From IMG/VR virus record IMGVR_UViG_3300046522_000316, positions 64,001 through 128,000 of that record: DNA of 64,000 nucleotides; one strand, written 5' to 3'. Numbering within the stretch: position 1 is the stretch's first letter; each line of letters starts with the position of its first letter. The stretch is from a virus. Its lineage: Duplodnaviria > Caudoviricetes. A program made the position numbers and the translations under genes. Shown here in pieces: positions 11,908 to 58,724 of this stretch. Under the pieces are notes generated by a model. That model was not told the DNA's origin and did no database searches. It saw only the letters and a list, made by a program, of their open reading frames with translations.

Positions 11908-13979
11908 TACGGTTCCAGATATTTTCGGATTTCATTGAGTTGGTCGGCGGCGCTGCCTTGGTGTTCAAAGCGCAGACGTTCTTCCAACATTTTCAAGGTC
12001 AGCGACCATTGTTCATTCGGTCTGTGTGCTTTACAGAATGCTTTGTAGCACATACCCATTGCGTAATAGCCGGGCGGGCCAGTGCGACCGGTAGGGCCGT
12101 CCTCGTTGGGGCCACACGGGCCGGTAATCCCTTCGGGGCCTGTCGTGATTTCAACCTGTTCGCAAAGCAGACCGTTTTCCAGTTCCGCCACCGGGCAATT
12201 GTCTTCGTGCAATTCGTTGCCGAAAGTACGATGTTCACAAATGCATTCGGTAACAGGCACGCCGAGTTCATCAGCCAGTTCACGGCTCATGAAAACAGTC
12301 TCCGGCGTCAGAGTCGATTCGAGAATTGCATCGCGCAATTTGTCGATCTTGACCGTTGCAACTTCTGCGATTTCGTCCAATGCAGCTTCTGCGGCCTGCA
12401 TCAGCAGCGAGATATCACCGGATGTTGAGACAGATCCGATTTTTTCTTCGCCGTGATAAACAGCTGCTTCGTCCTCGACTTCTTCCGCACTTTCTACCGT
12501 GTCGGCACAGCCTGTGAGGAACAACCAATCCACACCATCGACCGATGTAACTTCTGCAACGTTGGTCAACGTCAGAACTTCAACGATGTGTTTTTCATCG
12601 TCCGGATGCAGATTGAATTTCCGGATGAAAACACTGACCTTCACACCACCGTCGAGGAAGTCGGTGATATCTTTCGGGTTGAGACTTTCGATCATCGCGT
12701 AACTGATCAGCGGAACATCGCGATCCGATTTCGGTTTGAACGGTTTGTATTCTTTGCCCTGATAACCAGTTTTCACCGGGAAGGTTTTCGGCGGGAAAGT
12801 CCCGGCCTTCGGGCTGGCGCTGACGGCGGTCTTCTGCGCGTACTGCACGTTCGAAGTGTGTGGCCCTTTCACGATGCTGTCGGGATTGCTCACGTCGTAA
12901 TCGAAATCGACCAGATAACGCGTCACATCGCTGTGATGAATTCGCGTTGTTTCCACGATATCGAAAAGGCGGTAAGGCTCACGGATATTTTCGCAATATT
13001 CGTCCATGATTGCGATTGCATCACTTGGGTCAGTGGTACGGTGCGCAATGTACATGGAACCCGGCACATATTCCAACGTCGGGTCGATAAACTCGGTGCC
13101 ATCCCAACCCATCAACACGCCGCTGCTCGCCACGTCTTCAAAGATTTCCAAGAAACGATCTTTGTCGATGAAATGTTTTTCGCTGATTTCTGCGTACAGC
13201 GAATCACTGGTGAATGCGCCGCGATAGTTCAGCATCCGTGCGCGCAGATCGTCAGAGAAAAGTGTCGGCAAATTGCGGATCTTTTCTGCGTGTGCCAGCG
13301 CCGCTTCGTGATCCTCGGCCAGCGTTTTGTTGTGGTATTCCACCAGCGTTTCCGGAACAGCTTTTTCCAGAACCTGAATCAGGCGCGCAGCCAGATCATC
13401 GTCGGATTCTTCCACAACAGGTTCCGTGATTTCTTGCGCGATTTCTGCAACTGCTTCGACAACGGTTTCAATCGTTTCGTTGAGTAGCGAATAAACCGTG
13501 AGGTTTTTACTCAACAGGCCGTCAGTAACCAGCTTGCGCAGCGGGTTGATCAGCGACGTTCCTTTTGCGAGGCCAAAGTTTTGTGCGATAACGGCGGCGG
13601 TGCGAGGCACACCATCTGCCATGTATTCCGCGATCATTTCAGGCGTGACTTTCATGGCCGTTCCATCGAGTGTTTCATTCGAAGTTTCCGGCACCGACTC
13701 CACAACTGGCACCGGGTCAGGTTTGGTTTCTACCACAGGCGCCAACGCGGCTTCCGCCTGTTGACGTTCCTGTTGACGCTTTTTGAATTCATCGGAAATG
13801 GACAGGCGATTATTTTCCGTCGCCTGCACATAACCCGCCTGTTTCAGACGCTCAAGTGCCCGCGTCAATTGGCTGTGATGCTTTCGCAGTTCATCCCCGT
13901 AATAAGTCAGGGTGCGTCCTTGGTCATTCTTGATTGCGTACAGCAGTTCTACCTCAATCGCGGACAGGTCTGTCATCAC
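11907..13979 (-). CDS. Large acidic protein with N-terminal winged-helix domains
   Basis: MarR-like N-terminal HTH (HSQLTRALERLKQAGYV) and a second wHTH-like segment. Confidence 0.7.
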   Translation of the reverse strand: MMTDLSAIEVELLYAIKNDQGRTLTYYGDELRKHHSQLTRALERLKQAGYVQATENNRLSISDEFKKRQQERQQAEAALAPVVETKPDPVPVVESVPETSNETLDGTAMKVTPEMIAEYMADGVPRTAAVIAQNFGLAKGTSLINPLRKLVTDGLLSKNLTVYSLLNETIETVVEAVAEIAQEITEPVVEESDDDLAARLIQVLEKAVPETLVEYHNKTLAEDHEAALAHAEKIRNLPTLFSDDLRARMLNYRGAFTSDSLYAEISEKHFIDKDRFLEIFEDVASSGVLMGWDGTEFIDPTLEYVPGSMYIAHRTTDPSDAIAIMDEYCENIREPYRLFDIVETTRIHHSDVTRYLVDFDYDVSNPDSIVKGPHTSNVQYAQKTAVSASPKAGTFPPKTFPVKTGYQGKEYKPFKPKSDRDVPLISYAMIESLNPKDITDFLDGGVKVSVFIRKFNLHPDDEKHIVEVLTLTNVAEVTSVDGVDWLFLTGCADTVESAEEVEDEAAVYHGEEKIGSVSTSGDISLLMQAAEAALDEIAEVATVKIDKLRDAILESTLTPETVFMSRELADELGVPVTECICEHRTFGNELHEDNCPVAELENGLLCEQVEITTGPEGITGPCGPNEDGPTGRTGPPGYYAMGMCYKAFCKAHRPNEQWSLTLKMLEERLRFEHQGSAADQLNEIRKYLEP

Positions 13980-15166
13980 TCTTTCTCGGCTAAAAACGCA
14001 CCAACACTGGAATAGAACACGACCGTTTCATCAAGGGTCGCGGTGTTCAGTTTGAGTTCGATTTCACACAGCAAATTTTGCAGTTGGATCAGACTTTTGA
14101 TTCCAGTCTTGACCTTTTCTTTTTTCGCCAGCGCATCGAACAGCTTGCCGTTATACGGCGTGTACTTGTTCATGCCGGTATGCTCGCCAATTCGATATTC
14201 GATCAGCCAGCGGACTTTGTTCAACAGCCCGCGCACACCGCCACAGATTTTGGCAGCTTGCACAACCTTGACATAATCTTTCTGGAAAACTGCCGCAAGG
14301 AAATGCGCAGAAGTTTCGTCCAGATCCGCTTCGATATCCACGAACGACGCGAGGTCGTCAGGATTGTATTTCTTGCCCGAAGCGAGGATAGAAAGAAAAA
14401 TATCCAGCTTCGACACTGCTTCACGCAAAGAGCCGTTACTGGATTCTGCAATTGTGGTCAGGGCCTTTTTCGCTTCCTTCTTGATCGTGTGACCTTCGGC
14501 TTCCGCGATCACAGACATGCGATCAACCAGCGTTGGAATGTCGATTTGCTTCAGACGGAAATGCGTGCAGCGACTGACCAAAGTTTTGTGTACTGCTTCC
14601 GGGTTCGTCGTGCAGAGAATCCAGATTGTGTTCGGTGGTGGATTTTCAGTTGCGGTCAACAACGCTTTTTCAGACGGGCCGCGCAGGGCGTGAACTTCGT
14701 CGAGAATGAAAACGCGTTTGCGGGTGTTCGGCGCGTTGTTCGCGGCGGCGATCAGATTACGGATGCTGGCAATGGAACCATCGACCGCGCAATCGTAATA
14801 GGAAACGTCCGGGTGTTTCTTGAACTGGCAGCTGTAGCACTTGCCGCACAGGTTCAGTTTTTCGCAGTTCACTTGCCGACTGAAGATCAGGGCGAACGTG
14901 GTTTTGCCGCAACCGTAATGCCCGGAGAACATCAACGACGACGGAACTTTTTGACGCTTGAACATGCCTTCGATTGCCGACGTTGCATGATCCTGACCAA
15001 CCACATCTGCCAGTTTGCGCGGGCGATATTCGTTTGCCAGTTGCGAAGTTTCCAGCGTCAGTTTCTCGCCGGATTTTTCACTGGCTTTTTTCTTCGCCTT
15101 TTTCACATTGGCTTCGGTATCAGATTTGAACGTCTTGACTTTCTTTTTTACTTTATCGGTTGCCAT
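13976..15166 (-). CDS. dnaX: DNA polymerase III gamma/tau-like clamp-loader ATPase
   Basis: YRPRKLADVVGQ, GHYGCGKTT, zinc module CxxxxxCxxCxxC, ILDEVH, SRC motif. Confidence 0.92.
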   Translation of the reverse strand: MATDKVKKKVKTFKSDTEANVKKAKKKASEKSGEKLTLETSQLANEYRPRKLADVVGQDHATSAIEGMFKRQKVPSSLMFSGHYGCGKTTFALIFSRQVNCEKLNLCGKCYSCQFKKHPDVSYYDCAVDGSIASIRNLIAAANNAPNTRKRVFILDEVHALRGPSEKALLTATENPPPNTIWILCTTNPEAVHKTLVSRCTHFRLKQIDIPTLVDRMSVIAEAEGHTIKKEAKKALTTIAESSNGSLREAVSKLDIFLSILASGKKYNPDDLASFVDIEADLDETSAHFLAAVFQKDYVKVVQAAKICGGVRGLLNKVRWLIEYRIGEHTGMNKYTPYNGKLFDALAKKEKVKTGIKSLIQLQNLLCEIELKLNTATLDETVVFYSSVGAFLAEKE

Positions 15167-15705: not shown

Positions 15706-16947
15706 TTATTCGGCAATAGCTGCCTTCAGAGTTTTATCCAGAAGTTTCTGAACAGTTTTCGGAATGGATTTGCCGGTCAGAGAAAGCGCGAAGGCCTCGG
15801 CAAACATTTCTTGCACGTTGGTGCCTGCGTATTCGCCCATCAGCGCAGTTACCGAATCGGTGTTGGAGAACGAAGCCGAAGTCGGCCAGATTTCCGCCAG
15901 CACTTTGCTGTTTTGGTTCAGCAAAACGTTCGCGTCTTCCGGCGTCATTTTGTGAACTTTCTTCAGGTACGAAAGCGCTTCTTTGAACAGGGCCAGTTCG
16001 TCTTCTTCGAGGTCGCGTTGGAATTCGCGAATGCTCATTTGAGAATTGACCAGCGACTGACACAACGATTCCATGTCCGATTTCTTGGCCTTGGAAACTT
16101 TAGTCATCGTGTTGTACTGTTCCAGCCACAGCGCACGGATTTTTTCAGGCACGAAGCGATACCACACAGCGTGGCCGATTTCGTGAATGAAAATGTACTG
16201 GTTGTAGATTTGATCTTCCACGATTTTCGGGAAGAGTTTAATCAGGTCAACCGCTTCGCCGGTCTTGAAGCTGACCGAGTAGGTGCCCGCCCACTTGCCT
16301 TTCGGATTGTGAACTTCGATACGGCTGATCGGGAAAACTTTTTCCAGATCGAGGTCAACGATTTTCTTGTGCGCTTTTTTCACACCGATGCGGATCGCTT
16401 CTTTCTCGGCGTCGGAACACTTGCGGTAGAAGTGCATCGGGCCAATCGGCGTGTCGATTTCGCCAAGGTGCGGCATGATTTCCACACCGAAAACTTTACC
16501 CGGCTTCGGATCTTTGCCGAGGTTGGCAATCAGCGTGTTCGCGTCGTATTCGATGGCGACCGGCTCATTGGTATTCAGCGATTCTTCCAGATACGCAGTG
16601 TTGCGTTTCGGGCTGTGCGCGAATGCCAGTTTATTTTTCTTGCCGATTTGGACAATGATGTAGTCGTCCTGTTCGACCGGCAGTTGGACTTTGGCGTCGG
16701 CTGCTGCCACTTCGGTTTTCTTTTTCTTTTTCACCTTGCCGTCGCCAGCTTTGGTGCCGCTCACGTCACGACCGAGGTCTTTCATTTTCGGCTTGAGGTC
16801 GAGGCCTTCCGACTTCACCAAACCTTTTTTCTTTTTCTTTTTCGGCGCGTCGTCTTCTACAACGACTTTCTTTTTCTTTTTCGGTGCAACGTCTTCGCTG
16901 CTACTCTTCTTCTTTTTCTTCTTTTTCTTCAGGTCATCATCAGCCAT
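15706..16947 (-). CDS. Zincin-like metallopeptidase with a poly-Lys N-terminus
   Basis: HEIGH (HExxH) and downstream Y..TN..EMFAEAF third-ligand motif. Confidence 0.7.
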   Translation of the reverse strand: MADDDLKKKKKKKKSSSEDVAPKKKKKVVVEDDAPKKKKKKGLVKSEGLDLKPKMKDLGRDVSGTKAGDGKVKKKKKTEVAAADAKVQLPVEQDDYIIVQIGKKNKLAFAHSPKRNTAYLEESLNTNEPVAIEYDANTLIANLGKDPKPGKVFGVEIMPHLGEIDTPIGPMHFYRKCSDAEKEAIRIGVKKAHKKIVDLDLEKVFPISRIEVHNPKGKWAGTYSVSFKTGEAVDLIKLFPKIVEDQIYNQYIFIHEIGHAVWYRFVPEKIRALWLEQYNTMTKVSKAKKSDMESLCQSLVNSQMSIREFQRDLEEDELALFKEALSYLKKVHKMTPEDANVLLNQNSKVLAEIWPTSASFSNTDSVTALMGEYAGTNVQEMFAEAFALSLTGKSIPKTVQKLLDKTLKAAIAE

Positions 16948-20687: not shown

Positions 20688-20820
20688 TTGGGTTTCCTTT
20701 TAACGGTTTGTTTCGAATGGCAGGCCGGGCGGCGGCTGGCGGGAAGGGGGGCTGCGGAACTGGGGGATGGGCGCCTTCGGCGCAGTTACCATAGGTAACG
20801 AGCATTAAACCGAAGGCCTA

Positions 20821-20845
20821 TTGTATTGTCGCAAGATCAATACAA
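20821..20845. promoter_or_regulatory. Operator-like inverted repeat
   Basis: TTGTATTG-N9-CAATACAA; a second palindrome GTTACC-ata-GGTAAC lies at about 20785-20799. Confidence 0.45.
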
Positions 20846-21286: not shown

Positions 21287-21303
21287 GGGTGGTTTGAATC
21301 GTT

Positions 21304-24569: not shown

Positions 24570-25205
24570 ATGGCCCGTAAGCGTAAAGCAAAACCGAAGC
24601 CGATCAAGATTGAATTGCCTGTGCCAACGAAGAAACGTATTCGCGTAATGGGCGAAGACATGGGCACAAAGAATTACGCCGTAACGCAAATCGAAGCGTG
24701 GGTGAAAGAGGAAGACGGCAAACGCCGCATGTGCTTTAAAATCATCGGTACAAAGATGATGGAACACATGATTCACGACGTAAAGATTGCACAGCTTGAA
24801 TGCCGTGCGTTTGTCGATGAATACAACCAATTGCCAGCCGTTGATTACATTGCAGCCGAACGCTTTCAGGCCCGGCCCGGTCGCGGTGCTGGAACCACGG
24901 TTGAAGCCATTTCCATGATGCTTGGCGTAATGATGATCCTGCGCCCGGATATTCCAACCGAGTTCTATACGGCTGCAACGTGGAAGAACGAATTCAATCG
25001 GACGCCTGCCGATTTGAAAGAGATGTACGAAGACCTGAAAGTGAAATACAAAGGCAAAGGAATCGTGATTCACCAACTGGATTCGTTCCTTATCGCGCTT
25101 TATCACGCAGCGAAACTATTGCGTGTTCCGGCCTATGATTTCATTCATTCGCATACCGACGAAGAACGACTTTTCAATGTCCTTTCCAAAGCCCCAACCC
25201 TTTAA
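24570..25205 (+). CDS. ruvC: RuvC-like Holliday junction resolvase
   Basis: RNase H-fold motifs MGEDMGTKNYA, IAAERFQ and HQLDS. Confidence 0.8.
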   Translation: MARKRKAKPKPIKIELPVPTKKRIRVMGEDMGTKNYAVTQIEAWVKEEDGKRRMCFKIIGTKMMEHMIHDVKIAQLECRAFVDEYNQLPAVDYIAAERFQARPGRGAGTTVEAISMMLGVMMILRPDIPTEFYTAATWKNEFNRTPADLKEMYEDLKVKYKGKGIVIHQLDSFLIALYHAAKLLRVPAYDFIHSHTDEERLFNVLSKAPTL

Positions 25206-27252: not shown

Positions 27253-27570
27253 TTAAACAATTCCGATACGGTATTCGATACGCTTGGCGCAGGTCAGCAC
27301 ACGGTTTTTGAAACTGCCGTGGCGCAACGTCTGGAGCAATTCGAAATTCGCGTTGATAGATTTTTCCAACGCAATCACGCTGACCAGCGCGTCGGCCTCG
27401 GTCATGTCGCCTTCGAAGCCCGACACACCACGCAGCGAACTCCAATCACCTACGCCGAATTCTTCCATTAAGGCGCGTTCGATTTCATCATCCTTGCGCG
27501 ACAGCTTGTTCAGCGCTTCCATGATTTCGTTGTCAGCCAGCGGGATTTGATTCAGTGGGCCAAAATTCAT
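27253..27570 (-). CDS. Hypothetical protein, paralog of 26941-27243
   Basis: Shared C-terminal motif. Confidence 0.7.
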   Translation of the reverse strand: MNFGPLNQIPLADNEIMEALNKLSRKDDEIERALMEEFGVGDWSSLRGVSGFEGDMTEADALVSVIALEKSINANFELLQTLRHGSFKNRVLTCAKRIEYRIGIV

Positions 27571-28691
27571 TTCTGTTTAATCCTCTTCGGTTTCTTTTCC
27601 ATGGACAGCTTCGGGAATTCCTTGCTGGTTTTCTCGATAGCCTTCACTTTCTTTTTCTTGGCCGGTGCCGAGGCTTCGACCTTTTTCACTTTCTTTTTCT
27701 TCGGCTTTTCTTCTTGACCGTAGGCGTAGACAATATCCTTCACCTTGTCGATCAGCTTCTGCGGTGCGGCGTCCGGGTCAAGCTTGATCAGATTGCCTTC
27801 GTCGTCATACTTGCACGGCAATTTCAGTTCTTCGAAATCCAGTTGGCCGTCACAGAAACTTTCGACCAGACGCGCCATCTGCTTACCGGCTTTGTCGTTA
27901 TCCGTCAGCGTGTAAACCTTCGTGATGCCAAGGCCTTGCAGCAGCATCAATTTACGCGGGCCGAACATTTTCGAACCGAGAATTGCACAGGCCGGGATTT
28001 TATTCAGCACCAGACGCAGCCAGTCACGCGGGCCTTCACACAGCACCACCGCTTTGCATCCGAACAAATCATGCTTGCGAATAAAATCGTAACCGAGCAA
28101 ACCGTAGTCCATTACCCAATCACCTTTGGTGTTGATATAGGACAATCCGGTTTCCTGTTTTTCCATCAACGCTTTAACGCCGCCCTTGTACCGGCCATTA
28201 ATGTAAATAGGAAGAGCAAGCAGAACGTCTTCGCGTTGATCCTCACTGAACATGTGACCATTCACGCGTTCAATCATTGTGCCGGGATATCCGCGCCAAT
28301 CTTTTTCCTTGGGCCACGGAATTACCGCGCCGCCCAATTCTTCGTAGAGTCGCCCGATGGAACGGTTATTCGTATTTTCTCTTTCTTTCTTTTTCCGGTT
28401 GTATCGTGCCCGGTCGCCAGCAGTTGATCCGTTGAAGAATTGCCATTTTTTCAGCTGCTGTAAATCAAGCTTAGCCGCCAGCTTGTTCCACGGCCCCGAT
28501 TCACCACACGACCAACAGTTAAACGTTCCTACAGGCACCCGCGCTTCTAGGCTGATGTTAATGCCGAGCGATGGGTTACTGTCTTCGTGGAACGGACAAA
28601 CGATTTCGAACGTGGTTGTTTTGAATCTGGTTGGGCCTTGGATTTTTTCTAGTTCGGCCATGATGACCGTGAAGGCATCATCAAGTTTCAT
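27567..28691 (-). CDS. dnaG: DnaG-like DNA primase (CHC2 zinc finger plus TOPRIM) with a poly-Lys tail
   Basis: CPFHEDSNPS...CWSC, VLCEGPRD and DNDKAG. Confidence 0.88.
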   Translation of the reverse strand: MKLDDAFTVIMAELEKIQGPTRFKTTTFEIVCPFHEDSNPSLGINISLEARVPVGTFNCWSCGESGPWNKLAAKLDLQQLKKWQFFNGSTAGDRARYNRKKKERENTNNRSIGRLYEELGGAVIPWPKEKDWRGYPGTMIERVNGHMFSEDQREDVLLALPIYINGRYKGGVKALMEKQETGLSYINTKGDWVMDYGLLGYDFIRKHDLFGCKAVVLCEGPRDWLRLVLNKIPACAILGSKMFGPRKLMLLQGLGITKVYTLTDNDKAGKQMARLVESFCDGQLDFEELKLPCKYDDEGNLIKLDPDAAPQKLIDKVKDIVYAYGQEEKPKKKKVKKVEASAPAKKKKVKAIEKTSKEFPKLSMEKKPKRIKQK

Positions 28692-28748: not shown

Positions 28749-29915
28749 GTGTTTAAGGATATTGCGAGCCGTATAAAAAAGGAAAGACGGTCAGTGCATA
28801 TCGAATCGCACTTAGGCCAAGTCTATGCGCAGATAATGGATAGCAACATTATCACGCCGAATGGTCGCGGGCCGGAATACCGCCCGTCCTCCTTTCCAAT
28901 TTGTCCAATCCTCGTTCACATGCAGTTTTTGCAAGCGGCGGAAAACGGATTCTATCAATCGAACATGACAGCAGGCGGCGGGTATTTCACAACCGTCGGA
29001 ACTGCTGCGCACGAAAACATTCAGTATTACATGGGGCAGACACGGAAAGTTTTCGGTGATTGGAAATGCCGGAACAGCAAGTGTCAGAAGCACCACGACG
29101 CCCGCGATCTTTACGACGAAAAAGGCGTGATGTACCGCAAAGGGAAGCTGACGACAAAAAACACCACGAACAACCTGTGCCCGGATTGCGGCATCGCTTG
29201 TGAGTATGTGGAAAAATGCATTGATTACTTCGGCCTGAAAGGTCACATCGACTGCATTTATGAAATGCCCGATGGCACGTACTGGGTTCTCGACTACAAG
29301 ACGACCACCAAAGGTCTGATGGAAGGGAACAAACTTCCGAAGCGTGAACACTTGATGCAGGTTCCGACGTACTGCTACGTGTTGGAAAAGAAATACAAAA
29401 TGAAAATCTCCGGATTCTCATTGCTGTACCTCAGTCGCGACAACCCGTATCAGTTCAAAGAGAAAGCCGAACGCTGGGGCGAGCGCCGTCGCAACGAAAC
29501 GAAAAAACTGATCATCCAGCAGAAGAAAATCTACCGGTCTGCTGTGAACAGTTTTATTCAGAACAAACCGGAACTCGCGATCAAGTGCAAACCGTGCAAA
29601 GCGCCAGACGATTACGAACGTTTGATGCCTGCGTATGAGGCGTGCCCGATGGAAAAGGTCTGCTTTAATAAACGCAGCCTGACCGACAACATGCTGCACG
29701 CACTGCAACCGGAAAAACTGATCAAAGTTCTGAACATCACCAACAACATGGAAAACTATGTTGAGCCTGAAGTGCTGTCGGTGCTGAAGAAACTTTGCGA
29801 CAAGCCGAAGAAATTGAAAAAGAAATCTAGCGCGTCTGACACCGACCTCAAACTGCCGTCGGCCAAGGCGAAAAAGAAAAAGCCTTCTAAACCTTTGAGG
29901 TTGACCAAGAAATGA
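28749..29915 (+). CDS. Cas4/RecB-like PD-(D/E)xK exonuclease with probable Fe-S cysteines
   Basis: GHID...VLDYKT...Q..TY; N-terminal CP and C-terminal CxxC...C...C. Confidence 0.8.
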   Translation: MFKDIASRIKKERRSVHIESHLGQVYAQIMDSNIITPNGRGPEYRPSSFPICPILVHMQFLQAAENGFYQSNMTAGGGYFTTVGTAAHENIQYYMGQTRKVFGDWKCRNSKCQKHHDARDLYDEKGVMYRKGKLTTKNTTNNLCPDCGIACEYVEKCIDYFGLKGHIDCIYEMPDGTYWVLDYKTTTKGLMEGNKLPKREHLMQVPTYCYVLEKKYKMKISGFSLLYLSRDNPYQFKEKAERWGERRRNETKKLIIQQKKIYRSAVNSFIQNKPELAIKCKPCKAPDDYERLMPAYEACPMEKVCFNKRSLTDNMLHALQPEKLIKVLNITNNMENYVEPEVLSVLKKLCDKPKKLKKKSSASDTDLKLPSAKAKKKKPSKPLRLTKK

Positions 29916-32292: not shown

Positions 32293-34398
32293 ATGGCTGA
32301 AAAGAAAGTGAAACCCAAGGCGAAGGCTGATCCAGCCGTCGAAGGGAAAAAGCTCAAGAAAACGAAAGTCGCTGAAGGCGTGGAAAAAACCACCAAAAAG
32401 AAATCAGCATCGCAGGAAGATTTCACGATCCACGAAGGGCTGGCCGGTATCCGTGCGAAACCTTCCATGTACCTTGGCGAGCAAGGCGCACCGATGGCGT
32501 ACCGCTGCCTGAAAGAAGGCGTGGATAACTGCTACGACGAACACATTGCCGGTCGCAACAAAGTAATCGAAGTTATTCTGGATTACGACACCGGTTGTTA
32601 CATCGTGGCCGACCAAGCGGGCGGCATTCCTACCGATTTCATGAAGCTGAAATCTGGTGAGAAAATTTCGATCATGACTGCCGCGTATACCAAAACGCAC
32701 GCAGGCGCAAAATTCAACGACAAGGCCTACAAAACTTCGGCAGGTACTCACGGTATCGGTATGTCCGCAGTTAACGCCGTGTCTGAGCGCATGCGTGTGT
32801 GGACAACGTACAACGGCAAGCTGGCGACACAAACGTACAGCAAAGGCGAAATCGTTCCGGGGCCGAAAAAAGATTTGCATCCGTACATCGTCAAGGCGGT
32901 GGACAAGGATGTAATGGGCCACCTGAAAGACAAGCTGCAAAAATACGGAACGATTGTCGCAATCGAACTGGATCAGACCGTCGTTTCTATCAACGCGAAA
33001 GCCGGTAAACTTCCGAAGACTTTCGAAGCGGCAGAACCGAACGCAACTGAAGTTGGCGTGTGGCTGAACAACGTCGCGATGCTCAACCCCGGTCTGGAAA
33101 TTCGTTTCTCCACGATCCGCAAGGGCAAGCGCAAAGACGAACTTTTCCTGAACAAAAAGGATTTGGCGTTCGTACCGAAAAACATGTGCGAATTGCGCGA
33201 CCTCACACCGCAGGGCAAGACGTTCATTTTCAAAAGCGACAACATCACTTGCGCGCTGGTTTGGTCTGACCACACCGACGCCGATAACTTCCTGACATTC
33301 GTGAACACTTCGCCAACCGTAGACGGTGGCTGGCACGTAACGGGTTTCACCGCTGCACTTTCCAAAGCCGTGAAAAAACACGTGCCGGAAAAGAAACCAG
33401 CGAAAGGAAAAGGCAAGTCGCAAGGTTACACCGGTTCCGACCTGCTGATCGGCCTGACGGGCATGTTCGACTGGCGTATGCACGGCGCTGCGTACACGTC
33501 GCAGGTAAAAGACAAACTCAGTTCGAAAGTGGACAAAGAAGTCGAAGACATTATGTTCCCGGCTTTCGATAAATACTTCACGGATAACCCGAAGGTCGCG
33601 AAAGACATTATCAAGCGCGCCTTGATCATGAACAAAGGCCGTGAAGAATTGGCCGCTGTCGTGAAATCCATGGCCGACGTGAAGAAACAAGGCAAGGGCA
33701 CACTGCCTGTCAAACTCGCACAGTCGCCACACTGCAAAGCGTGGGAACGTGAATTGTTTGTGGTGGAAGGGGATTCTGCAAAAGGCCCATCGGTTGACGC
33801 CCGCGACACGCACTATCAGGAAGTTTTGGCAGCTGGTGGTAAACCACTCAACGCCCTGAAAGCACCGATTGCGAAAATCATCACGCACAAAGATATTTCG
33901 GCATTCCTGATTGCCATCGGCGTTGATTTGAAATCGCTTGACCCGAAAGCAGAACGCCCGAAACTCAGCACCGAAAAATTGCGGATCAAATCCGTTCTGT
34001 TGCTGGTTGACCCTGACCCGGACGGCGGTCACATTGCGGTTCTTTATCTGGCCGTGATTTATCGTTTGCTTCCGGATCTGTTCAAAGAAGGCCGCGTGTT
34101 CTGCGTACAGGCGCCGCTTTATGCCGCGCTGGATTCGAAAGGTGCGCTTTACGGTGGTATGACCCACGCCGAGTGCCGTGGTGCTGCGCCGAAATCTGTA
34201 AAGGATCAGGACATTGTGCGTATCAAAGGTTGGGGGGAAGTTGGCCCGGAATATATCGGCCCGATTGCTTTCGATCCAAAATATCGCAAGCTGATTCAAA
34301 TCAACCCGTTCGCATCTGCTGCTGATGAACAGTGGTTCCGCGCCGTGGTTTCTGAAGACGCTGTGAACCGCCGTAAACTTCTCGGCCTTGAGGATTAA
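32293..34398 (+). CDS. gyrB: Type IIA topoisomerase B subunit (GyrB/ParE-like)
   Basis: GHKL ATPase motifs EGVDN and GTHGIGMSAVNA; TOPRIM VEGDSA and DPDPDGGHI. Confidence 0.93.
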   Translation: MAEKKVKPKAKADPAVEGKKLKKTKVAEGVEKTTKKKSASQEDFTIHEGLAGIRAKPSMYLGEQGAPMAYRCLKEGVDNCYDEHIAGRNKVIEVILDYDTGCYIVADQAGGIPTDFMKLKSGEKISIMTAAYTKTHAGAKFNDKAYKTSAGTHGIGMSAVNAVSERMRVWTTYNGKLATQTYSKGEIVPGPKKDLHPYIVKAVDKDVMGHLKDKLQKYGTIVAIELDQTVVSINAKAGKLPKTFEAAEPNATEVGVWLNNVAMLNPGLEIRFSTIRKGKRKDELFLNKKDLAFVPKNMCELRDLTPQGKTFIFKSDNITCALVWSDHTDADNFLTFVNTSPTVDGGWHVTGFTAALSKAVKKHVPEKKPAKGKGKSQGYTGSDLLIGLTGMFDWRMHGAAYTSQVKDKLSSKVDKEVEDIMFPAFDKYFTDNPKVAKDIIKRALIMNKGREELAAVVKSMADVKKQGKGTLPVKLAQSPHCKAWERELFVVEGDSAKGPSVDARDTHYQEVLAAGGKPLNALKAPIAKIITHKDISAFLIAIGVDLKSLDPKAERPKLSTEKLRIKSVLLLVDPDPDGGHIAVLYLAVIYRLLPDLFKEGRVFCVQAPLYAALDSKGALYGGMTHAECRGAAPKSVKDQDIVRIKGWGEVGPEYIGPIAFDPKYRKLIQINPFASAADEQWFRAVVSEDAVNRRKLLGLED

Positions 34399-34401
34399 AA
34401 A

Positions 34402-34704: not shown

Positions 34705-36297
34705 ATGGCAAAGGTGAAAACGAAAGAAGTAGCGAAGGTTAAAAAATCTTCGCTCACGAAAATGAGCAAGACGGAAGTAGCGAAATCGCCGGTGATTAAA
34801 TTCGTCACCGTCGCACGCGAAACCAAAATGCAAACCATCAACGAATTTTCTGATGGCGCCCTGCATATCTACGGTTCCTACGTGGTGGAAGATCGGGCCG
34901 TTCCCGACTTCCGCGATGGTCTGAAACCAGTTCACCGCGCCGTGTTGTGGGCACTCGATGGCCTCGGCCTGCATCACCACAAAGGTTTCAAGAAATCGGC
35001 GCGTACAGTCGGTGACGCAATCGGTAAATATCACCCGCACGGTGACAGCGCTTGTTATGGCGCAATGGTGACGATTGCAAATAGCAACCCGCCGCTGGTG
35101 TGGGGCCAAGGTGGCTGGGGCAAACCGGATGGCACGACCGCATCCGCATATCGTTACACCGAAGCGAAGAAATCGAAATTTGCTGATACCTTTTTGCTCG
35201 ATCAGCAATATCTGAAAGTTGTTCCGATGGAAAACAACTTTTCGAACGATGAAAAACTTCCGCTGTATCTGCCTGCGCTGCTGCCTACGCTTTTGTTCCT
35301 CACATCGACGCCGCCCCCGGCCTACGGTGTGAAAGTCGGCAACCCTGCGTTCTCGGTCGCCACGGTTTCGAAAGTCGTGGTCGATATGCTCAACGGCAAA
35401 ACGTACACCGCGAAGAAATTGGCGGAAACGTTGAAAATTGTTCACCCGTTCGGCTGCATCGACGTTTCGTCTGACGCGGCAATCGAAGACCTCATGGCGA
35501 CCGGTAAAGGTTCCGTGCAGTACATGCCGCTGATTGATTACGATATCGAAAAGCGCATCATTCGAATTCGTTCGTTCTGTCCGGGCACGCTGACCGGCGA
35601 AGAGGGTTTGGACAAAGCTCTGCAAAAGCTGGCGAATATCGACGGCGTGAAAAACGCGTCGAATACTTCCGGCAAAAAGAACAAACACGCTGGCCCATAC
35701 GGCGCGCATCTGGAAGTAGCTTGTCCGAAAAACATGGACGAAGAATCTTTCGATGAAGTATGCGCGAAAGTAGACAAAGCGGTGAAAAGTTCCGTCGCTT
35801 ATCGACTGGGTATCACGATCCGGAAATCCGGTGAAGAAACCAACCGCTTCAAATACGTGAACTACGTCGAATATTTCACGGCGTGGATCAAGTACCGGGT
35901 CAAGCTCGAAGAACGCCTGATCGACTTCCTGCTGGCGAAGGCTGCGCGTGAATTGCACTTGAACGAAGTGTATTTGTACGCGGTGCAGAATCGTGAAAAA
36001 TTGCTGAAAGCGTTGCCGAAAGTTCTGGCGTCGAAAACCCCGGCTGAAGTGCTGGCGAAGACTCTGAAAATGCCGGTGCCTGATGCGGAAATCATCCTTG
36101 AACGGAAAGTGCGCCAATTGGCAGCGCTGGAAGAATCCGATCTGAAGGCCAAGATCAAAAACATCAAGGGCGAAATCAAGGATTTGAAATCCGACCAGAA
36201 AGAACCGGGCAAGCGTGCTGCGCGTGACACAACCGAGCGCGTGAAAAACTACCTGAAGAAACCTGACCCGACTGTTTCGGGCATCAAGGTTGAGTGA
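34705..36297 (+). CDS. gyrA: Type IIA topoisomerase A subunit (GyrA/ParC-like) lacking the C-terminal pinwheel
   Basis: RAVPDFRDGLKPVHR, YHPHGD and catalytic RYTE. Confidence 0.93.
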   Translation: MAKVKTKEVAKVKKSSLTKMSKTEVAKSPVIKFVTVARETKMQTINEFSDGALHIYGSYVVEDRAVPDFRDGLKPVHRAVLWALDGLGLHHHKGFKKSARTVGDAIGKYHPHGDSACYGAMVTIANSNPPLVWGQGGWGKPDGTTASAYRYTEAKKSKFADTFLLDQQYLKVVPMENNFSNDEKLPLYLPALLPTLLFLTSTPPPAYGVKVGNPAFSVATVSKVVVDMLNGKTYTAKKLAETLKIVHPFGCIDVSSDAAIEDLMATGKGSVQYMPLIDYDIEKRIIRIRSFCPGTLTGEEGLDKALQKLANIDGVKNASNTSGKKNKHAGPYGAHLEVACPKNMDEESFDEVCAKVDKAVKSSVAYRLGITIRKSGEETNRFKYVNYVEYFTAWIKYRVKLEERLIDFLLAKAARELHLNEVYLYAVQNREKLLKALPKVLASKTPAEVLAKTLKMPVPDAEIILERKVRQLAALEESDLKAKIKNIKGEIKDLKSDQKEPGKRAARDTTERVKNYLKKPDPTVSGIKVE

Positions 36298-36304
36298 GGT
36301 CAAC

Positions 36305-46793: not shown

Positions 46794-47351
46794 ATGGCAA
46801 AGCCAGAAAAAACCGTTAAAGCAAAAGCACGCACCAAAGTTTCCCGTCTCGACAAAGCCCTGCGCAAGCTGACCGGCACCAGCGCCAAAACCCCGTTCAG
46901 CATGAAATCCGGCGTGTTCACCGTGACCGGCTTCAGCGTTGTTCCTGCCGAAGTTCCGGGCTACCTGATCGACCGCACCGCGACCCACACCATCTATCGC
47001 CACAAGGCCACCAGCGCCTCGAAGAAAATGGTTGTGTCCGTGTTCGCAAACTCCGACGTTCTGCAACTGCTGGGCGGCAAGGAAGGCGGTAGCGTTACCG
47101 TTCGCCGTCGTTCCGCTTTCACCAGCGCAACCGGCACCCTGAAATTCGACGGCACTTCGGTTATCGTTACCGACACTGACGGCGGTGTTGCCGTGTTCGA
47201 TCTGGCCGCTGGCGATTACGAAATCAAAGCAGCCGATACCGAAGGTTCGCAAACTTCCGGTCGTGGCGTGAAATCGTCTTCCGACGAAGGCAAGAAGAAA
47301 AAGAAAGTCGTCGATATCAAAGAAGGCGGCAAGAAAAAAGCAAAAAAGTAA
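46794..47351 (+). CDS. Basic protein with a poly-Lys tail
   Basis: Strong codon bias; ends GKKKKKVVDIKEGGKKKAKK. Confidence 0.8.
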   Translation: MAKPEKTVKAKARTKVSRLDKALRKLTGTSAKTPFSMKSGVFTVTGFSVVPAEVPGYLIDRTATHTIYRHKATSASKKMVVSVFANSDVLQLLGGKEGGSVTVRRRSAFTSATGTLKFDGTSVIVTDTDGGVAVFDLAAGDYEIKAADTEGSQTSGRGVKSSSDEGKKKKKVVDIKEGGKKKAKK

Positions 47352-47494: not shown

Positions 47495-48001
47495 ATGGCT
47501 AAGCCAGCACCAAAGAAATCCGCCGCCAAATCCAAGCCAGCCCCGAAGAAAGCCGGCAAGAAAAAATCGGCTCCGGAAATCACCGCTGACGATCTGAACC
47601 TGATCAACATGGATGTGCTGTCGCAAATCCTGATCGCGTTCCAAGACAAAGGCTTCGAAACCATCGAAGACGTGATCGGCGCCGTGCAGCAACTGATCGA
47701 AAGCGAAGAGGAAGAGGAAGAAGAGGAAGAAGAGGAAGAAGAGGAAGAGGAAGAAGAGGAAGAGGAAGAGGAAGAGGAAGAGGAAGAAGAGGAAGAGGAA
47801 GAGGAAGAAGAGGAAGAGGAAGAGGAAGAGGAAGAAGAGGAAGAGGAAGAAGAGGAAGAGGAAGAGGAAGAGGAAGAGGAAGAAGAGGAAGAGGAAGAAG
47901 AGGAAGAAGAGGAAGAGGAAGAGGAAGAGGAAGAGGAAGAGGAAGAGGAAGAGGAAGAGGAAGAGGAAGAGGAAGAAGAGGAAGAGGAAGACGACGAATA
48001 A
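47495..48001 (+). CDS. Bipolar protein with a basic N-terminus and a 95-residue poly-Glu tract
   Basis: ATG at 47495 after a GGAG RBS; MAKPAPKK...IES-E95-DDE. Confidence 0.85.
   Translation: MAKPAPKKSAAKSKPAPKKAGKKKSAPEITADDLNLINMDVLSQILIAFQDKGFETIEDVIGAVQQLIESEEEEEEEEEEEEEEEEEEEEEEEEEEEEEEEEEEEEEEEEEEEEEEEEEEEEEEEEEEEEEEEEEEEEEEEEEEEEEEEEEEEEEEEEEEEEEEEDDE
47705..47989 (+). repeat. 285-bp pure-purine (GAA/GAG)n tract
   Basis: 95 consecutive GAR codons. Confidence 0.95.
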
Positions 48002-49767: not shown

Positions 49768-50422
49768 CCATTTTAATTGTGGCTGCGTAGTGGTCGGGGA
49801 TATCCCTTCAATCACACGGTGCGAAGAGCATGGCGGTTGCATTGTCGCCTTCCACAATCAGAATGTGCCTGCACGCCGCTGGAGTAATGAGGCACAAGAC
49901 CTCAACGTGTGGCAGGGAACACTGCTGCACAATCTCCGCAAAATCAAAGACGAATGTTTTTCCTACATTTTCGCATACCCGGAACTCAACGCGCTCGGCC
50001 CCATGAATTTTCTACGGCCCGAAGCTTGGCGGAATGCGGATATGGAAATGATGCGCCACCTGAAACGCATTTTAAAACCGGGCGGCTACATTTCCTTTGT
50101 CGTTGATCCAAGCGTGCTGCATACAGTGACCTATCAAGTCAGCAAATTGAAAATGAAAATCGACGTGCGCGGTTGCATTCTTGATCGCTTCGACGCTTCC
50201 CCATCTTCGACGCTGGCCTACTCGGTCGCAGATGCCAAAGTGCATCTAATCGTGTACAACGAATATCGGGATAAAATCCCAAAATCGGGTAGCCGCATTC
50301 TGGATCTTAGCGGGCTGAAACTATCCTACGTTTTGAAACGGAAAAGGAAAAACAAATTACTGGTTCTAGCAGGACACCCGTACCACTTTGATAAAGTGAC
50401 GGCGCGTCTAGAGGACGCCTAA
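49733..50422 (+). CDS. DNA N6A/N4C methyltransferase-like protein, degenerate, with an N-terminal Cys/His cluster
   Basis: LRKIKDECFSYIFAYPE (cf. DPPY), RILKPGG and RILDLSG (cf. FxGxG). Confidence 0.6.
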   Translation: MKCMSHLDTMINHFNCGCVVVGDIPSITRCEEHGGCIVAFHNQNVPARRWSNEAQDLNVWQGTLLHNLRKIKDECFSYIFAYPELNALGPMNFLRPEAWRNADMEMMRHLKRILKPGGYISFVVDPSVLHTVTYQVSKLKMKIDVRGCILDRFDASPSSTLAYSVADAKVHLIVYNEYRDKIPKSGSRILDLSGLKLSYVLKRKRKNKLLVLAGHPYHFDKVTARLEDA

Positions 50423-51084
50423 TGGCAGTCAAGACGAAAAAGGTGAAGGTACAGTCGGTTAAGAAATCGAAAATCATCACCAAACCGAAAAAGACACAGG
50501 CCACACGCGAAGCAGAAAAGACCAAAGAGCGAAAGCGTAAATCGACAGCGGCCCCGGTGCGCTCTGCCGGTCGAATTAAAGTGGCGGGCATTCCGTACAA
50601 GCTGCGTAAGTTCGAAAACTTGGGCGCTCGCCCGATGCCCGAAACGTTCTTCACACGACAGGGCAAAAGTCTCAAGGATCTAATCCGAAATACGTTCCGC
50701 ATTTGCATCAACAATGCCGTGGACGTTGAGGCGCACCGTTACCAAAGCACCACGACGAAAGCCGGGCGCAAAGCCGTCAAAGGGATCATGTGGACGAATG
50801 ACCCGTTCCGCCCTGACCGCGTGCGTCGATACCACGAAACGTACATCGTGGGTCTGGATAAAAACGGCGAAAATAAACCACTGATGAAACACAAGCGGGT
50901 GCTTGTGCAATGCACGTGTGAAAACTACGTGTACTGGTGGGAATATGCGAACGCCCGTTGCGGTGCTGCGTACCTGATTTATTCCAACGGTGAACCGCCC
51001 GTGTGGACAAACCCCGGCATGTCGGTAGGCCTGTGCAAACATCTTGTGGCCCTGTCGAAAATTGTCATTGAAGAAAACCTCTGA
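50422..51084 (+). CDS. SWIM zinc-finger protein with a basic N-terminus
   Basis: VQCTCENY...GLCKHLVAL (CxCx(n)CxH). Confidence 0.8.
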   Translation: MAVKTKKVKVQSVKKSKIITKPKKTQATREAEKTKERKRKSTAAPVRSAGRIKVAGIPYKLRKFENLGARPMPETFFTRQGKSLKDLIRNTFRICINNAVDVEAHRYQSTTTKAGRKAVKGIMWTNDPFRPDRVRRYHETYIVGLDKNGENKPLMKHKRVLVQCTCENYVYWWEYANARCGAAYLIYSNGEPPVWTNPGMSVGLCKHLVALSKIVIEENL

Positions 51085-55846: not shown

Positions 55847-57097
55847 ATGGCGACCGCCGTTTTTAAAGGCATGGGCAGCATCCGCACCAACAGTGGCAAG
55901 GGTGATTCGCTCCGCTTGGACGAAGTTGTTGATATCATCCAGTGGCCGAAAAACAAATATTTCCTGTTCCGCATTTTGCCGATCATGCCGCTGCAAGTGC
56001 GTCAGGTCTGGATCAAACTGTGGGCCGGTGGCAAGGGCAAAGAAAAACGCGAAGTGAACATTCCGCGTTACGCTATCGACTTCGATCCGAACGATCCGGA
56101 AACCCCGAAAAAAGGCGTGAAGTGCCCGTACATGGCGCTGGCCGACAAGTTCAAAGGCCAGAAAGAAAAGCCGGTGCGTGCGTCCGACTTCTGGTTGTTC
56201 AACGTGATCGACCGCGACATGCAGGAAGAAGGCCCGCCGCGTAAAGCGTCGAAGCCAACCAAGGAAGAAAAGAATTCCGGTTTCAAGGATATCAATTCTG
56301 AAACTTGGACTCCGGTTCGCGTTGCGCGTCTGACCATGACTTCGATCAACCGACTGCAAGAACTGTCGGAAGAAAACAAAATCAAGTCGAAGAAATCCGG
56401 CAAAACCGCGCAGTACGACGTATCCGATGCGAAGTATGGTTTCGACACCAAACTGAAATTCAAACCGGACGCAGCGGGCACCGACAAATACACCATCGAC
56501 AAAGCGGACGGCCCTACCCCGCTGAGCGACGAAGAGCAAGGCTATCTGACGTGGAACCTCACTGAAGAACTTCTGGACGCCACCGGTCGCATGACCGAAA
56601 AGGCTGCGAAGGAAGACGTTAAGCGTATGGAAATCATCGGCGGCGAAGAACTCGACGATGATGACGAAGACGAAGACGAAAAGCCGAAGAAAAAGAAAGG
56701 CAAATCCACTTCGCTCGACGACGATGACGACGAAGACGAAAAGCCGAAGAAAAAGAAAAAGAAATCTTCCATCGACGATGACGATGATGAAGACGAAAAA
56801 CCGAAAAAGAAAAAGAAGTCCAAGTCCATCGACGACGATGACGACGAAGACGAAAAGCCGAAGAAAAAGAAAAAGTCTTCGGACAAAGACGCCAAGTCTT
56901 CCAAGGTGAAAAAGAAGTCGAAGTCGGACGACGATGACGACGAAAAGCCGAAGAAGAAAAAGAAGGCCAAGGAAGAAGAAGCTCCGAAGAAAAAGAAAAA
57001 ATCTTCGGACAAGGACGAGAAAGGCGGCGCCAAAAAGAAAGTGAAGAAAGACGCCAAGAAAGGCAGCGGCAAGAAAAAGAACGCGTGGGATGACTAA
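55847..57097 (+). CDS. Putative T4 gp32-like ssDNA-binding protein with an alternating acidic/basic tail
   Basis: FRILP...CPY...WLFNVIDR core; position directly upstream of recA. Confidence 0.55.
   Translation: MATAVFKGMGSIRTNSGKGDSLRLDEVVDIIQWPKNKYFLFRILPIMPLQVRQVWIKLWAGGKGKEKREVNIPRYAIDFDPNDPETPKKGVKCPYMALADKFKGQKEKPVRASDFWLFNVIDRDMQEEGPPRKASKPTKEEKNSGFKDINSETWTPVRVARLTMTSINRLQELSEENKIKSKKSGKTAQYDVSDAKYGFDTKLKFKPDAAGTDKYTIDKADGPTPLSDEEQGYLTWNLTEELLDATGRMTEKAAKEDVKRMEIIGGEELDDDDEDEDEKPKKKKGKSTSLDDDDDEDEKPKKKKKKSSIDDDDDEDEKPKKKKKSKSIDDDDDEDEKPKKKKKSSDKDAKSSKVKKKSKSDDDDDEKPKKKKKAKEEEAPKKKKKSSDKDEKGGAKKKVKKDAKKGSGKKKNAWDD
56655..56960 (+). repeat. Coding tandem repeat DDDDDEDEKPKKKK(K) (about 5 units)
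   Basis: GACGATGACGACGAAGACGAAAAGCCGAAGAAAAAG-like units; bounds approximate. Confidence 0.85.
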
Positions 57098-57164: not shown

Positions 57165-58724
57165 ATGGCAAAAACCGCCGTAAAGACCAAAAAGCTCGAC
57201 CTTTCCGAAAAGGTTCTGAAGACTTCCAAGTCGAAAGTTCCAGCCGTCGTTGAGAAAAAGACTTCCAAGTCGAAAGCTCCGGCAGTGAAAGGCTCTAAGA
57301 GCAAGGATGTAGCCGTCGCGGCCAAGCCCGACAAATTTGTCTTCAACCCTTACGCATCATTCGAAGACGAAATTGATAACATGGAAAAAAAGGTCGGTCT
57401 GACCTCCATGTCTGTCAACGAAAAAGAAGACCGGTTGGGAACAGGCAGTCTCTGTCTCGATCTGCAAATGGCCGGTGGCCTTCTGGCCGGTGGTTGGTAC
57501 ACCTTCTACGGTGCGGAACAGTCGTGTAAAACCACGCTCGCCACAACCGTGATGGGTTCCATTGTTCGCAAAGCATCTTTCCTCGGTAAAGCGTTTTTCT
57601 TCGACTACGAAGGTTCGTTCTCCGCTGAATATGCGAACGCGATGTGGAAATACAACGGCGGCGGAAGTGCCGGTACTGTTGAGCAAGTTTTCGGTCTGGC
57701 TGGGAAAGACGGCGACTGGATTATTCGCCCACGTATCCGCAACTATGCGCCAGCAGTTGGCGAAGACTTTTTCGATGCGTTGGCTAGCACACTGAAAAAG
57801 CTTCCGTCTGTTCTGAAACTCGATGGTGATTTCTTCTACATTTACGAAAACACCAAAGCGAATCAGAAGCTGTGCAAAGGTCATTACGACGTTAAATATT
57901 TCAAGAAGACCAACAAGTTCAAAGTCCCGGCGCCACACGGCTTGCCGCAGGCTGTGTTCCTTGTGGACTCTTACCCGGCAATGCTTTCGCGTCGTGCAGA
58001 CGATAGCGAAGAGGGTAAAGACGGTCTGGCCTCGCAAGCGCGTATGTTCTCTGACGGGATCAAACGTGTTAAAGGCCGCATGAAAGAAAAACGCGTTCTG
58101 GTTCTCGGCATCAACCAATTGCGTTCTGTTCCGATGGCGATGTACGGCCCGACCGAACAGGAACCTTGCGGCCAAGCGCTGAAGTATTTCTCTGACGCTC
58201 GTTTCCGTATGTCTCCGATTGCGATTCCGCACGCGAAAGGCATGATGGAAGAAGAGCCGTCGATTAGCGGCGTCGGTGTTGATACCTACCGTTACATCAA
58301 GTGCCACGCTTTCAAAAATAAACTCGGTGGCCCGCAAAAATCCAACATGATCATGCGTCTGTATGTGTCGAACGAAAACGGCGAAGGCCTCGGTTTCGAC
58401 CGCGTGTGGGATACGTGGATGTATCTGAAAGAAACTGGCCAAATTTCCGGCCAGCGCAACAAAATGAAATTCGCAGAAGGTACACCGTTCGCAGGTCACA
58501 CCCTGTCGTACATGGATCTGAAGAAATTGGTCGATGGCAAAAAAGAATTGATCAAATCTTGCTGCGAAAAAATGAAGGTCAAGCCGCTGCGTATTTACGA
58601 GTGGTGCCGCAAGCAAATCGAATCCGGCAAGGGTTACGATTTGTACCTTGATCAAATCAAAGCAACCCACACCAAAAAGGCAGCGAAAGCCGCAGCCAAA
58701 GGTGACGGAGAGGACGAAGAATGA
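57165..58724 (+). CDS. recA: RecA/UvsX-family recombinase with a Lys-rich N-terminal extension
   Basis: GAEQSCKTT (Walker A), FFDYEGS, VFLVDS (Walker B) and GINQLR. Confidence 0.92.
   Translation: MAKTAVKTKKLDLSEKVLKTSKSKVPAVVEKKTSKSKAPAVKGSKSKDVAVAAKPDKFVFNPYASFEDEIDNMEKKVGLTSMSVNEKEDRLGTGSLCLDLQMAGGLLAGGWYTFYGAEQSCKTTLATTVMGSIVRKASFLGKAFFFDYEGSFSAEYANAMWKYNGGGSAGTVEQVFGLAGKDGDWIIRPRIRNYAPAVGEDFFDALASTLKKLPSVLKLDGDFFYIYENTKANQKLCKGHYDVKYFKKTNKFKVPAPHGLPQAVFLVDSYPAMLSRRADDSEEGKDGLASQARMFSDGIKRVKGRMKEKRVLVLGINQLRSVPMAMYGPTEQEPCGQALKYFSDARFRMSPIAIPHAKGMMEEEPSISGVGVDTYRYIKCHAFKNKLGGPQKSNMIMRLYVSNENGEGLGFDRVWDTWMYLKETGQISGQRNKMKFAEGTPFAGHTLSYMDLKKLVDGKKELIKSCCEKMKVKPLRIYEWCRKQIESGKGYDLYLDQIKATHTKKAAKAAAKGDGEDEE

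Follow-up and report, generated by a model that had tools for sequence, protein, structure and literature searches.

Conserved lysine-rich terminal tails, probable DNA tethers, on DNA-acting proteins of a jumbo phage lineage

In Streptomyces TopA, lysine repeats make the complex of enzyme and DNA more stable and give processivity (PMC5714199), and in Pseudomonas the KPAA peptides of AlgP bind DNA (PMC9239181), the AlgP and PhaF domains being found to bind RNA and polyphosphate as well and to organise subcellular bodies (PMC9239181, PMC12818456). In the phi29 terminal protein the N-terminal domain binds DNA non-specifically, and this binding is required for nucleoid localisation; domains of this type put the replication machinery at the nucleoid and are required for efficient replication (PMC4357725; also PMC3609834). 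Import into the nucleus of the chimalliviruses (Imp1/PicA) relies on surface patches, not on terminal signals (PMC13282480). The present work concerns lysine-rich terminal tails carried by replication, recombination and topology enzymes encoded in a 64 kb stretch of viral DNA (IMG/VR record IMGVR_UViG_3300046522_000316, positions 64,001 to 128,000), hereafter the window, to which coordinates refer unless a phage is named. The window shares approximately 77% nucleotide identity with the Pseudomonas phages HRDY3 (313 kb) and Lu11 (280 kb) and runs collinear to the replication and recombination modules of both. Its source is a Lu11/HRDY3-like Pseudomonas jumbo phage, and the window is its replication module.

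Lysine-rich tracts were found in 20 of the 86 window proteins predicted with a self-trained codon model. Under a strict criterion, namely at least 8 Lys in 20 residues at no more than 60 residues from a terminus, tails were present in 13 of the 86, as compared with 2.5 (maximum 4) after shuffling within each protein. The pooled enzyme tails contain 34% Lys, 11% Ala, 9% Val and 8% Ser, a composition that resembles the H1, AlgP and TopA type of DNA-binding tail, and their Lys/Arg ratio is 14.6 against 1.7 in the window proteome, with a net charge of +8 to +16 per tail. A preliminary description, made from the sequence of the window without database searches, had likened the tails to eukaryotic nuclear localisation signals. 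KKKK-type basic clusters matching the classical motif (K-K/R-x-K/R) do occur in every tail; the resemblance goes no further than composition. No importin-type receptor is known from bacteria.

All ten proteins named in that description (DnaX, the zincin, RuvC, primase, the Cas4-like nuclease, GyrB, GyrA, a SWIM protein, an SSB-like protein and RecA) were found to bear a tail, 24-144 residues long, at the genes listed in Table 1. The description had also placed the tails outside the catalytic cores, and this was borne out by several lines of evidence. The Pfam DNA_pol3_delta2 match in DnaX begins at residue 58, beyond the tail, and that of DNA_topoisoIV, the sole family matched in GyrA, spans residues 64-500. 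PHROG profiles begin at residue 90 in the zincin (peptidase; the HEIGH motif is at residue 255) and at residue 21 in RuvC (resolvase). In the primase, Pfam places the zinc ribbon at residues 26-71 and the Toprim domain at 215-296. Residue 43 of GyrB aligned to residue 10 of E. coli GyrB, and the core alignment of RecA begins at about residue 89; the bacterial orthologues aligned here lack such tails, as had been asserted. An AlphaFold model of the zincin (34 homologues) gave a per-residue confidence (pLDDT) of about 31 across the tail (residues 1-85), rising to about 90 in the core, the predicted disorder of the tails being that of this one modelled protein. An internal basic stretch of GyrB (residues 357-378) was considered as a possible insertion and rejected, as it aligns to the equivalent E. 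coli loop. The SSB was assigned through phrog_15004 (single-strand DNA-binding protein). As for the SWIM protein, its tail was confirmed and its label was not, the latter deriving only from a CxC...CxH motif in a protein to which the Pfam SWIM model gave no match even at E<=10. Most of the genes with an N-terminal tail have a Shine-Dalgarno-like motif ahead of the first ATG; given these motifs and the retention of the tail peptides in orthologues, the N-terminal tails are very probably translated.

Table 1 Tailed proteins and companion charged proteins of the window. Coordinates are window positions; K, R, D and E denote residues counted in the tail.
Protein	Gene	Strand	Segment (residues)	Segment coordinates	Charge and remarks
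DnaX-like clamp loader	13976-15166	-	N-tail, 1-36	15059..15166	13 K, 0 R, net +8
HEIGH zincin metallopeptidase	15706-16947	-	N-tail, 1-85	16693..16947	30 K, 1 R, net +16
RuvC-like Holliday junction resolvase	24570-25205	+	N-tail, 1-24	24570..24641	7 K, 3 R
DnaG-type primase	27567-28691	-	C-tail, 323-374	27570..27725	20 K, 1 R, net +15
Cas4-like PD-(D/E)XK nuclease	28836-29915	+	C-tail, 322-359	29799..29912	15 K, 1 R, net +13
GyrB-like topoisomerase II large subunit	32293-34398	+	N-tail, 1-40	32293..32412	14 K, 0 R
GyrA-like subunit	34705-36297	+	N-tail, 1-40	34705..34824	10 K, 1 R
Protein of unknown function	46794-47351	+	C-tail, 159-185	47268..47348	12 K, 0 R; conserved; phrog_22271
SWIM-like protein (CxC...CxH), 220 residues	50422-51084	+	N-tail, 1-50	50422..50571	14 K, 4 R, net +15; phrog_18980, function unknown
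SSB	55847-57097	+	C-tail, 273-416 (144 residues)	56663..57094	alternating poly-Asp/Glu and Lys blocks; 57 K, 47 D+E
RecA	57165-58724	+	N-tail, 1-55	57165..57329	Lys/Ser/Thr-rich; 16 K, 0 R, net +12
Poly-Glu protein	47495..48001	+	Lys-rich N-terminus, 1-27		also a small helical segment; about 100 Glu/Asp in a row
30%-Lys protein, 201 residues	48142..48747	+	Lys-rich repeat region, 60-193		31% Lys, 1% Arg; phrog_36478
Histone-H1/AlgP-like Ala/Lys-rich protein	1727-3130	-			20-22% Lys; tandem DNA repeats
Histone-H1/AlgP-like Ala/Lys-rich protein	38932-39513	+			20-22% Lys; tandem DNA repeats

The codons of the tails bear on the view that Lys runs arise by slippage in A-rich codons and, being functionless, are simply tolerated at protein termini. 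Slippage of AAGAAA hexamers is possible in principle, tail lengths vary by insertions and deletions with some tails lost altogether, and the long charged proteins do expand via tandem DNA repeats. Indeed, Tandem Repeats Finder located repeats in the H1-like protein, the poly-Glu protein, the 30%-Lys protein, two acidic tracts and the SSB tail region, the last with a 57-nucleotide tandem repeat at 56652-56875. The short enzyme tails, however, gave no tandem DNA repeats in this search, and homopolymer A runs are avoided, the longest in the window being of 7 nucleotides. In each Lys run of four or more residues both AAG and AAA codons are used, for the most part strictly alternating, and the share of AAG is 0.45 within the tracts against 0.30 outside. 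The alternation of codons and the absence of tandem repeats from the enzyme tails argue for selection on the peptide and not for recent slippage.

Conservation was examined in the complete genomes of Lu11, HRDY3, PaBG, Dickeya phage JA29 and Erwinia phage Alexandra, with Peetri and phiKZ as outgroups and identical gene calling across all genomes. Lu11 and PaBG both belong to jumbo-phage subgroup 2.2 (Iyer et al. 2021). In HRDY3 and Lu11 the tails occur at the same termini with similar charge; they vary by insertions and deletions, and the cores are mostly better conserved. At the greater distance of PaBG, Alexandra and JA29 (core identity 25-66%), most tails persist with a net charge of +3 to +16. 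The GyrA tail is present in all five relatives, and so is a net-positive RecA tail, which passes the K-tract threshold in four of them and falls below it in Lu11, where it is yet net +9; the RecA tail of the outgroup Peetri passes this threshold too. The DnaX tail, which is short in PaBG, is retained in the other four relatives, and C-terminal tails are found on DnaB and Pol I across most of the clade. The RuvC tail is retained in HRDY3 and Lu11 and lost in PaBG, Alexandra and JA29; other losses are those of the primase and Cas4-like tails in PaBG and of the zincin tail in Alexandra.

A wider sampling was obtained for GyrB. The best 120 homologues share 46-97% identity, are mostly metagenomic and in many cases lie on contigs of 200-314 kb, and nearly all of these start with a short Lys-rich leader ahead of the conserved strap motif. 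The tail was net-positive in 84 of the 84 homologues that could be scored automatically, down to 46% identity, with totals of 513 K and 34 R. Outside the clade GyrB identity is at most 31% and the trait is nearly absent. Strict tails number 7-19 per clade genome, against shuffle means of 3.2-4.3, and were found in none of the 341 proteins of phiKZ and in 2 of the 223 of Peetri, which has the same host species as Lu11; overall Lys content is the same, 6.4-6.5%. The trait is thus specific to one lineage, the Lu11 / HRDY3 / PaBG / Alexandravirus / Salmondvirus clade. Net charge is kept at orthologous termini while identity and length drift. The tails are judged to be a real, selected feature; neutral growth would lead one to expect neither that charge is still held by these termini at a core identity as low as 46% nor that outgroups of equal Lys content lack tails.

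The functional classes that carry tails were compared in the complete genomes of the relatives, because the window holds almost no structural genes; within it, with only 3 annotated non-DNA proteins, a class test is powerless. Of the annotated DNA-acting proteins of Lu11, 14 of 27 contain Lys tracts, as do 1 of 16 metabolic proteins (the zincin) and 2 of 32 structural proteins, in neither case at a terminus; such tracts are also present in 18 of 292 proteins of unknown function, about half of which are encoded in or adjoining the replication module. Terminal tails were then scored by a loose criterion (6 Lys in 15 residues), which is too permissive by itself, with a shuffle background of about 20 per genome against 28-45 observed, and DNA-acting proteins were compared with metabolic and structural proteins together by Fisher's test. 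Tails were found on 11/27 versus 1/47 proteins in Lu11 (p 2.9e-5), 12/27 versus 2/47 in HRDY3 (p 4.3e-5), 11/21 versus 0/24 in JA29 (p 3.5e-5), 8/23 versus 1/32 in PaBG (p 0.0026) and 7/21 versus 1/22 in Alexandra (p 0.021), that is, on 33-52% of DNA-acting and 0-5% of metabolic and structural proteins. Not one of the 119 structural orthologues in the five genomes has a terminal tail. Whether tails might be equally common on structural or unrelated proteins had been raised in the preliminary description, and they are not. Its claim of a shared charge-based feature on DNA-metabolism enzymes is instead upheld, both by this class restriction and by the conservation of charge rather than sequence across a deep clade. 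Growth of functionless Lys runs would have to produce the same confinement to DNA-acting proteins, and we regard it as very improbable.

With the exception of the zincin, all identified tail-bearers already act on DNA, and for this reason plain DNA tethering suffices without any compartment. In view of their composition, their restriction to DNA-acting proteins, their conserved charge and the experimental precedents (TopA, the phi29 terminal protein and AlgP/PhaF), it seems probable that the tails are selected disordered polycationic extensions, with Lys far in excess of Arg, that serve most likely as non-specific tethers to polyanions, chiefly DNA. Each tail would add about +8 to +16 of flexible charge to its enzyme and hold it on or near the phage DNA, so that local concentration, dwell time or processivity may rise. 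The tails may also partly replace DNA- or partner-binding domains missing from these compact phage enzymes: the beta-pinwheel C-terminal domain is missing from GyrA, and the helicase-binding C-terminal domain of DnaG was not detected by Pfam in the primase. Both the binding of DNA by the tails and its benefit to function are what we infer from sequence.

Several points weigh against this interpretation. About half of the DNA-acting proteins are tailless, including the sliding clamp, SbcCD, the sigma factor, TerL and, in most genomes, the 5'-3' exonuclease. The tails of RuvC, primase and the Cas4-like nuclease have been lost from PaBG without obvious replacement, and one tail-bearer, the zincin, is no obvious DNA binder. 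For Lys-rich tails, RNA, polyphosphate and acidic proteins would be just as good ligands as DNA. In addition, the classes compared above follow the GenBank annotation of Lu11, carried over to the other genomes by BLAST, and the five class tests are not independent, since orthologues share ancestry.

The zincin, which sits inside the replication module, bears the longest Lys-rich tail among the enzymes (85 residues). Its matches in the AlphaFold database are DUF1570 and peptidase MA-like proteins. An assignment as a DNA-protein-crosslink protease of the SprT/Wss1 type could not be made, as the fold matches generic MA-clan peptidases, with a best E of 0.016 and with Wss1 in 27th place over about 95 residues. 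A role as a DNA-dependent protease is possible.

The SSB tail comprises six poly-acidic blocks, and an Asp/Lys-block tail is conserved in all five relatives, ending W-D-D in the window, HRDY3, Lu11 and PaBG and in Lys runs in JA29 and Alexandra. In bacterial and T4-type SSB a disordered linker with an acidic tip acts as a hub for replisome partners. The Lys tails might dock onto proteins, with the poly-Glu protein or the acidic blocks in the tail of the SSB as binding partners, so that fuzzy electrostatics replace the contacts between SSB tip and partner pocket of bacterial replisomes. The set of tailed proteins, namely primase, clamp loader, DnaB, RecA, Pol I, topoisomerases and nucleases, overlaps the classical SSB interactome, and both the primase without the DnaG C-terminal domain and the six acidic blocks would fit such docking. 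The Lys blocks of the SSB tail would, however, neutralise its acidic blocks intramolecularly, and the tails of JA29 and Alexandra lack an acidic tip. On balance, docking of this kind seems improbable.

The enzyme tails are accompanied by other charged proteins (Table 1). The acidic run of the poly-Glu protein is encoded by about 50 copies of GAAGAG; the neighbouring 30%-Lys protein has a helical N-terminal part, a Lys-rich region covered by repeats of 39-42 nucleotides and an acidic, Phe-containing C-terminal tip. In Lu11, HRDY3, PaBG, JA29 and Alexandra a poly-acidic protein and a protein of 28-31% Lys are likewise adjacent, and the acidic/Phe tip is kept in all five. By analogy with an acidic chaperone and histone H1, the two could be a polyanion/polycation partner pair. 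Every clade genome has the SSB with its Asp/Lys-block tail, at least one H1-like Ala/Lys-rich protein and the adjacent pair, and none of the three was found in phiKZ; because all clade genomes keep these components, the enzyme tails belong to a lineage-wide charge toolkit. Long internal acidic tracts derived from tandem repeats were also noted in two conserved proteins of unknown function, at residues 460-521 of the product of 40615-42531 (+), which matched no Pfam or PHROG family, and at residues 86-141 of that of 29912-30619 (+), which matched no Pfam family.

This toolkit is the ground for a more elaborate proposal, in which the SSB tail, the poly-Glu protein, the 30%-Lys protein and the phage DNA form a membraneless coacervate and the Lys tails act as a signal for partitioning, letting in a defined set of enzymes. 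Such a compartment would be the prokaryotic-virus analogue of the nucleolar grammar of K-blocks and D/E tracts. A composition with Lys far above Arg, K-blocks and D/E tracts has been reported for fluid electrostatic condensates, and condensates of E. coli SSB have reportedly been observed. The presence of the block-tailed SSB and of the adjacent pair in every clade genome, and their absence from phiKZ, agree with this proposal, as do the tails on the zincin and, in some genomes, on Nudix orthologues, which are not obvious DNA binders. AlgP offers a precedent, its Lys-rich tail having been discussed as a possible partner in polyphosphate coacervation (PMC9239181). According to a 2026 paper, it has stayed unclear what phase separation contributes to phage development.

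The preliminary description had also pointed to a search for chimallin and PhuZ elsewhere in the genome, and neither was found in four complete relatives. A single-sequence search with ChmA (phiKZ gp054) matched only itself and nothing at E<=1 in HRDY3, Lu11, PaBG and Alexandra, although very remote homologues could escape it, and the Pfam Tubulin model matched the PhuZ locus of phiKZ and none in the same four genomes. A phage nucleus of the phiKZ type was rejected on these grounds. Without a proteinaceous nucleus, another organisation of replication is conceivable for the clade, which would leave room for a coacervate. The pattern, however, does not need a tag, as almost all tail-bearers already bind DNA. 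Moreover, nucleotide-supply enzymes, plausible recruits to a replication factory, are tailless, and individual enzymes of some clade members have lost their tails. Admission to a condensate overlaps with plain DNA tethering, and computation cannot separate the two; we consider it a rather unlikely, secondary explanation. Of the targeting code that had been proposed, the shared, charge-based restriction to DNA-acting proteins therefore stands, while recruitment to a compartment or condensate is a less likely addition, plain tethering being sufficient.

Other destinations can be envisaged: the tails might bring about packaging of the enzymes in the capsid along with the DNA, or direct them to polyphosphate granules, RNA or an anionic membrane. 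The Lys-rich domain of AlgP is required for the organisation of polyphosphate granules in Pseudomonas (PMC9239181), and in Lu11 the orthologue of the window gene 42599-43735, gp158, bears the annotation of a putative polyphosphate kinase. This annotation is supported by neither Pfam nor PHROGs for the product of 42599-43735 and was dropped as evidence; as for packaging, no virion protein is tailed. Targets of this kind are hardly credible as the main role of the tails.

Some further features of the window and its relatives were recorded. The window has a G+C content of approximately 50% and no tRNA genes, and its genes lie on the minus strand as far as about 24.5 kb, beyond which they lie on the plus strand. 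Very long antisense open reading frames are numerous, for instance one of 1302 amino acids opposite gyrB and gyrA at 32404-36312 (-). They have no coding signal and are artefacts, because biased codon usage on the sense strand avoids those codons that would read as a stop on the opposite strand. Adjoining the primase gene, 26941-27243 and 27253-27570 (-) encode adjacent small paralogues of 100 and 105 amino acids that both match one and the same HRDY3 gene at about 35% identity and so point to a local duplication. In HRDY3 (20006-23976), gyrA is annotated as two open reading frames (22385-23329 and 23326-23976) and gyrB ends early, with a C-terminus diverged from those of the window and Lu11; a frameshift, a sequencing error or an intervening element could account for this. 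PaBG is the sole clade member with tRNA genes, two for tRNA-Lys(UUU) and others for tRNA-Asp, tRNA-Ala and tRNA-Thr (PaBG 4743-5291 and 7283-7358). Lys, Asp and Ala are the dominant residues of the charged low-complexity regions, and AAA codons are rare in the G+C-rich genome of the PaBG host.

The tails had been put forward as the best candidate for an undescribed system, a term which is too strong, given that Lys-rich DNA-tethering tails are known from Streptomyces TopA, AlgP/PhaF and the phi29 terminal protein. A literature search that included the Lu11 and PaBG papers, Iyer 2021 and a 2026 jumbo-phage review gave no description of the present tails, and their coordinated use over one phage lineage does not appear in the literature searched. 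The subject bears on how jumbo phages without a protein-shelled nucleus replicate genomes of 250-310 kb. A transferable cationic tail is common to about a dozen enzymes of replication, recombination and topology, which are accompanied by a conserved polyanion/polycation pair; this provides a handle readable from sequence. If the tails only tether, this would be, within the literature searched, the first whole phage replisome equipped with the 'affinity-tuner' tails of eukaryotic DNA-binding proteins; if they also sort enzymes into a condensate, viruses of bacteria would have a second, independent way to compartmentalise. As Lu11 and PaBG can be grown on tractable Pseudomonas hosts, both possibilities are directly testable, and the tails may serve as portable DNA-tethering tags.

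Compared with known systems, the clade shares with the chimalliviruses (phiKZ-like) the need of Pseudomonas jumbo phages to bring replication enzymes to phage DNA; it differs in that no ChmA or PhuZ homologue was found in the four clade genomes searched, while phiKZ has no terminal Lys tails. The likeness to SSB hubs lies in the long disordered C-terminal tail of the clade SSB, in its acidic aromatic W-D-D tip in the Pseudomonas phages and in the putative partners, which are the Lys-tailed enzyme classes; the tail of the window SSB, with 144 residues of alternating Asp/Lys blocks, is far more charged than known SSB linkers, and recognition of Lys-tailed partners is hypothetical. The phi29-type terminal protein (PMC4357725, PMC3609834) likewise has a basic phage segment resembling a nuclear localisation signal, but it is one partly folded protein of protein-primed replication and its segment is not common to many enzymes. 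AlgP and PhaF (PMC9239181, PMC12818456) occur in the same host genus and have Lys-rich disordered DNA-binding domains, and the two H1-like window proteins resemble the KPAA domains in composition. In AlgP and PhaF these are long KPAA-type tandem repeats on architectural proteins, whereas the enzyme tails are non-repetitive, 24-85 residues long and placed on catalytic proteins. The actinobacterial TopA C-terminal domain (PMC5714199) is, like the clade tails, a disordered, lineage-specific Lys-rich extension outside the core of a DNA enzyme. TopA, however, is one enzyme in one bacterial phylum, while the tails of the clade occur at either terminus of about a dozen unrelated phage enzymes, follow no fixed repeat unit and co-occur with poly-acidic partner proteins.

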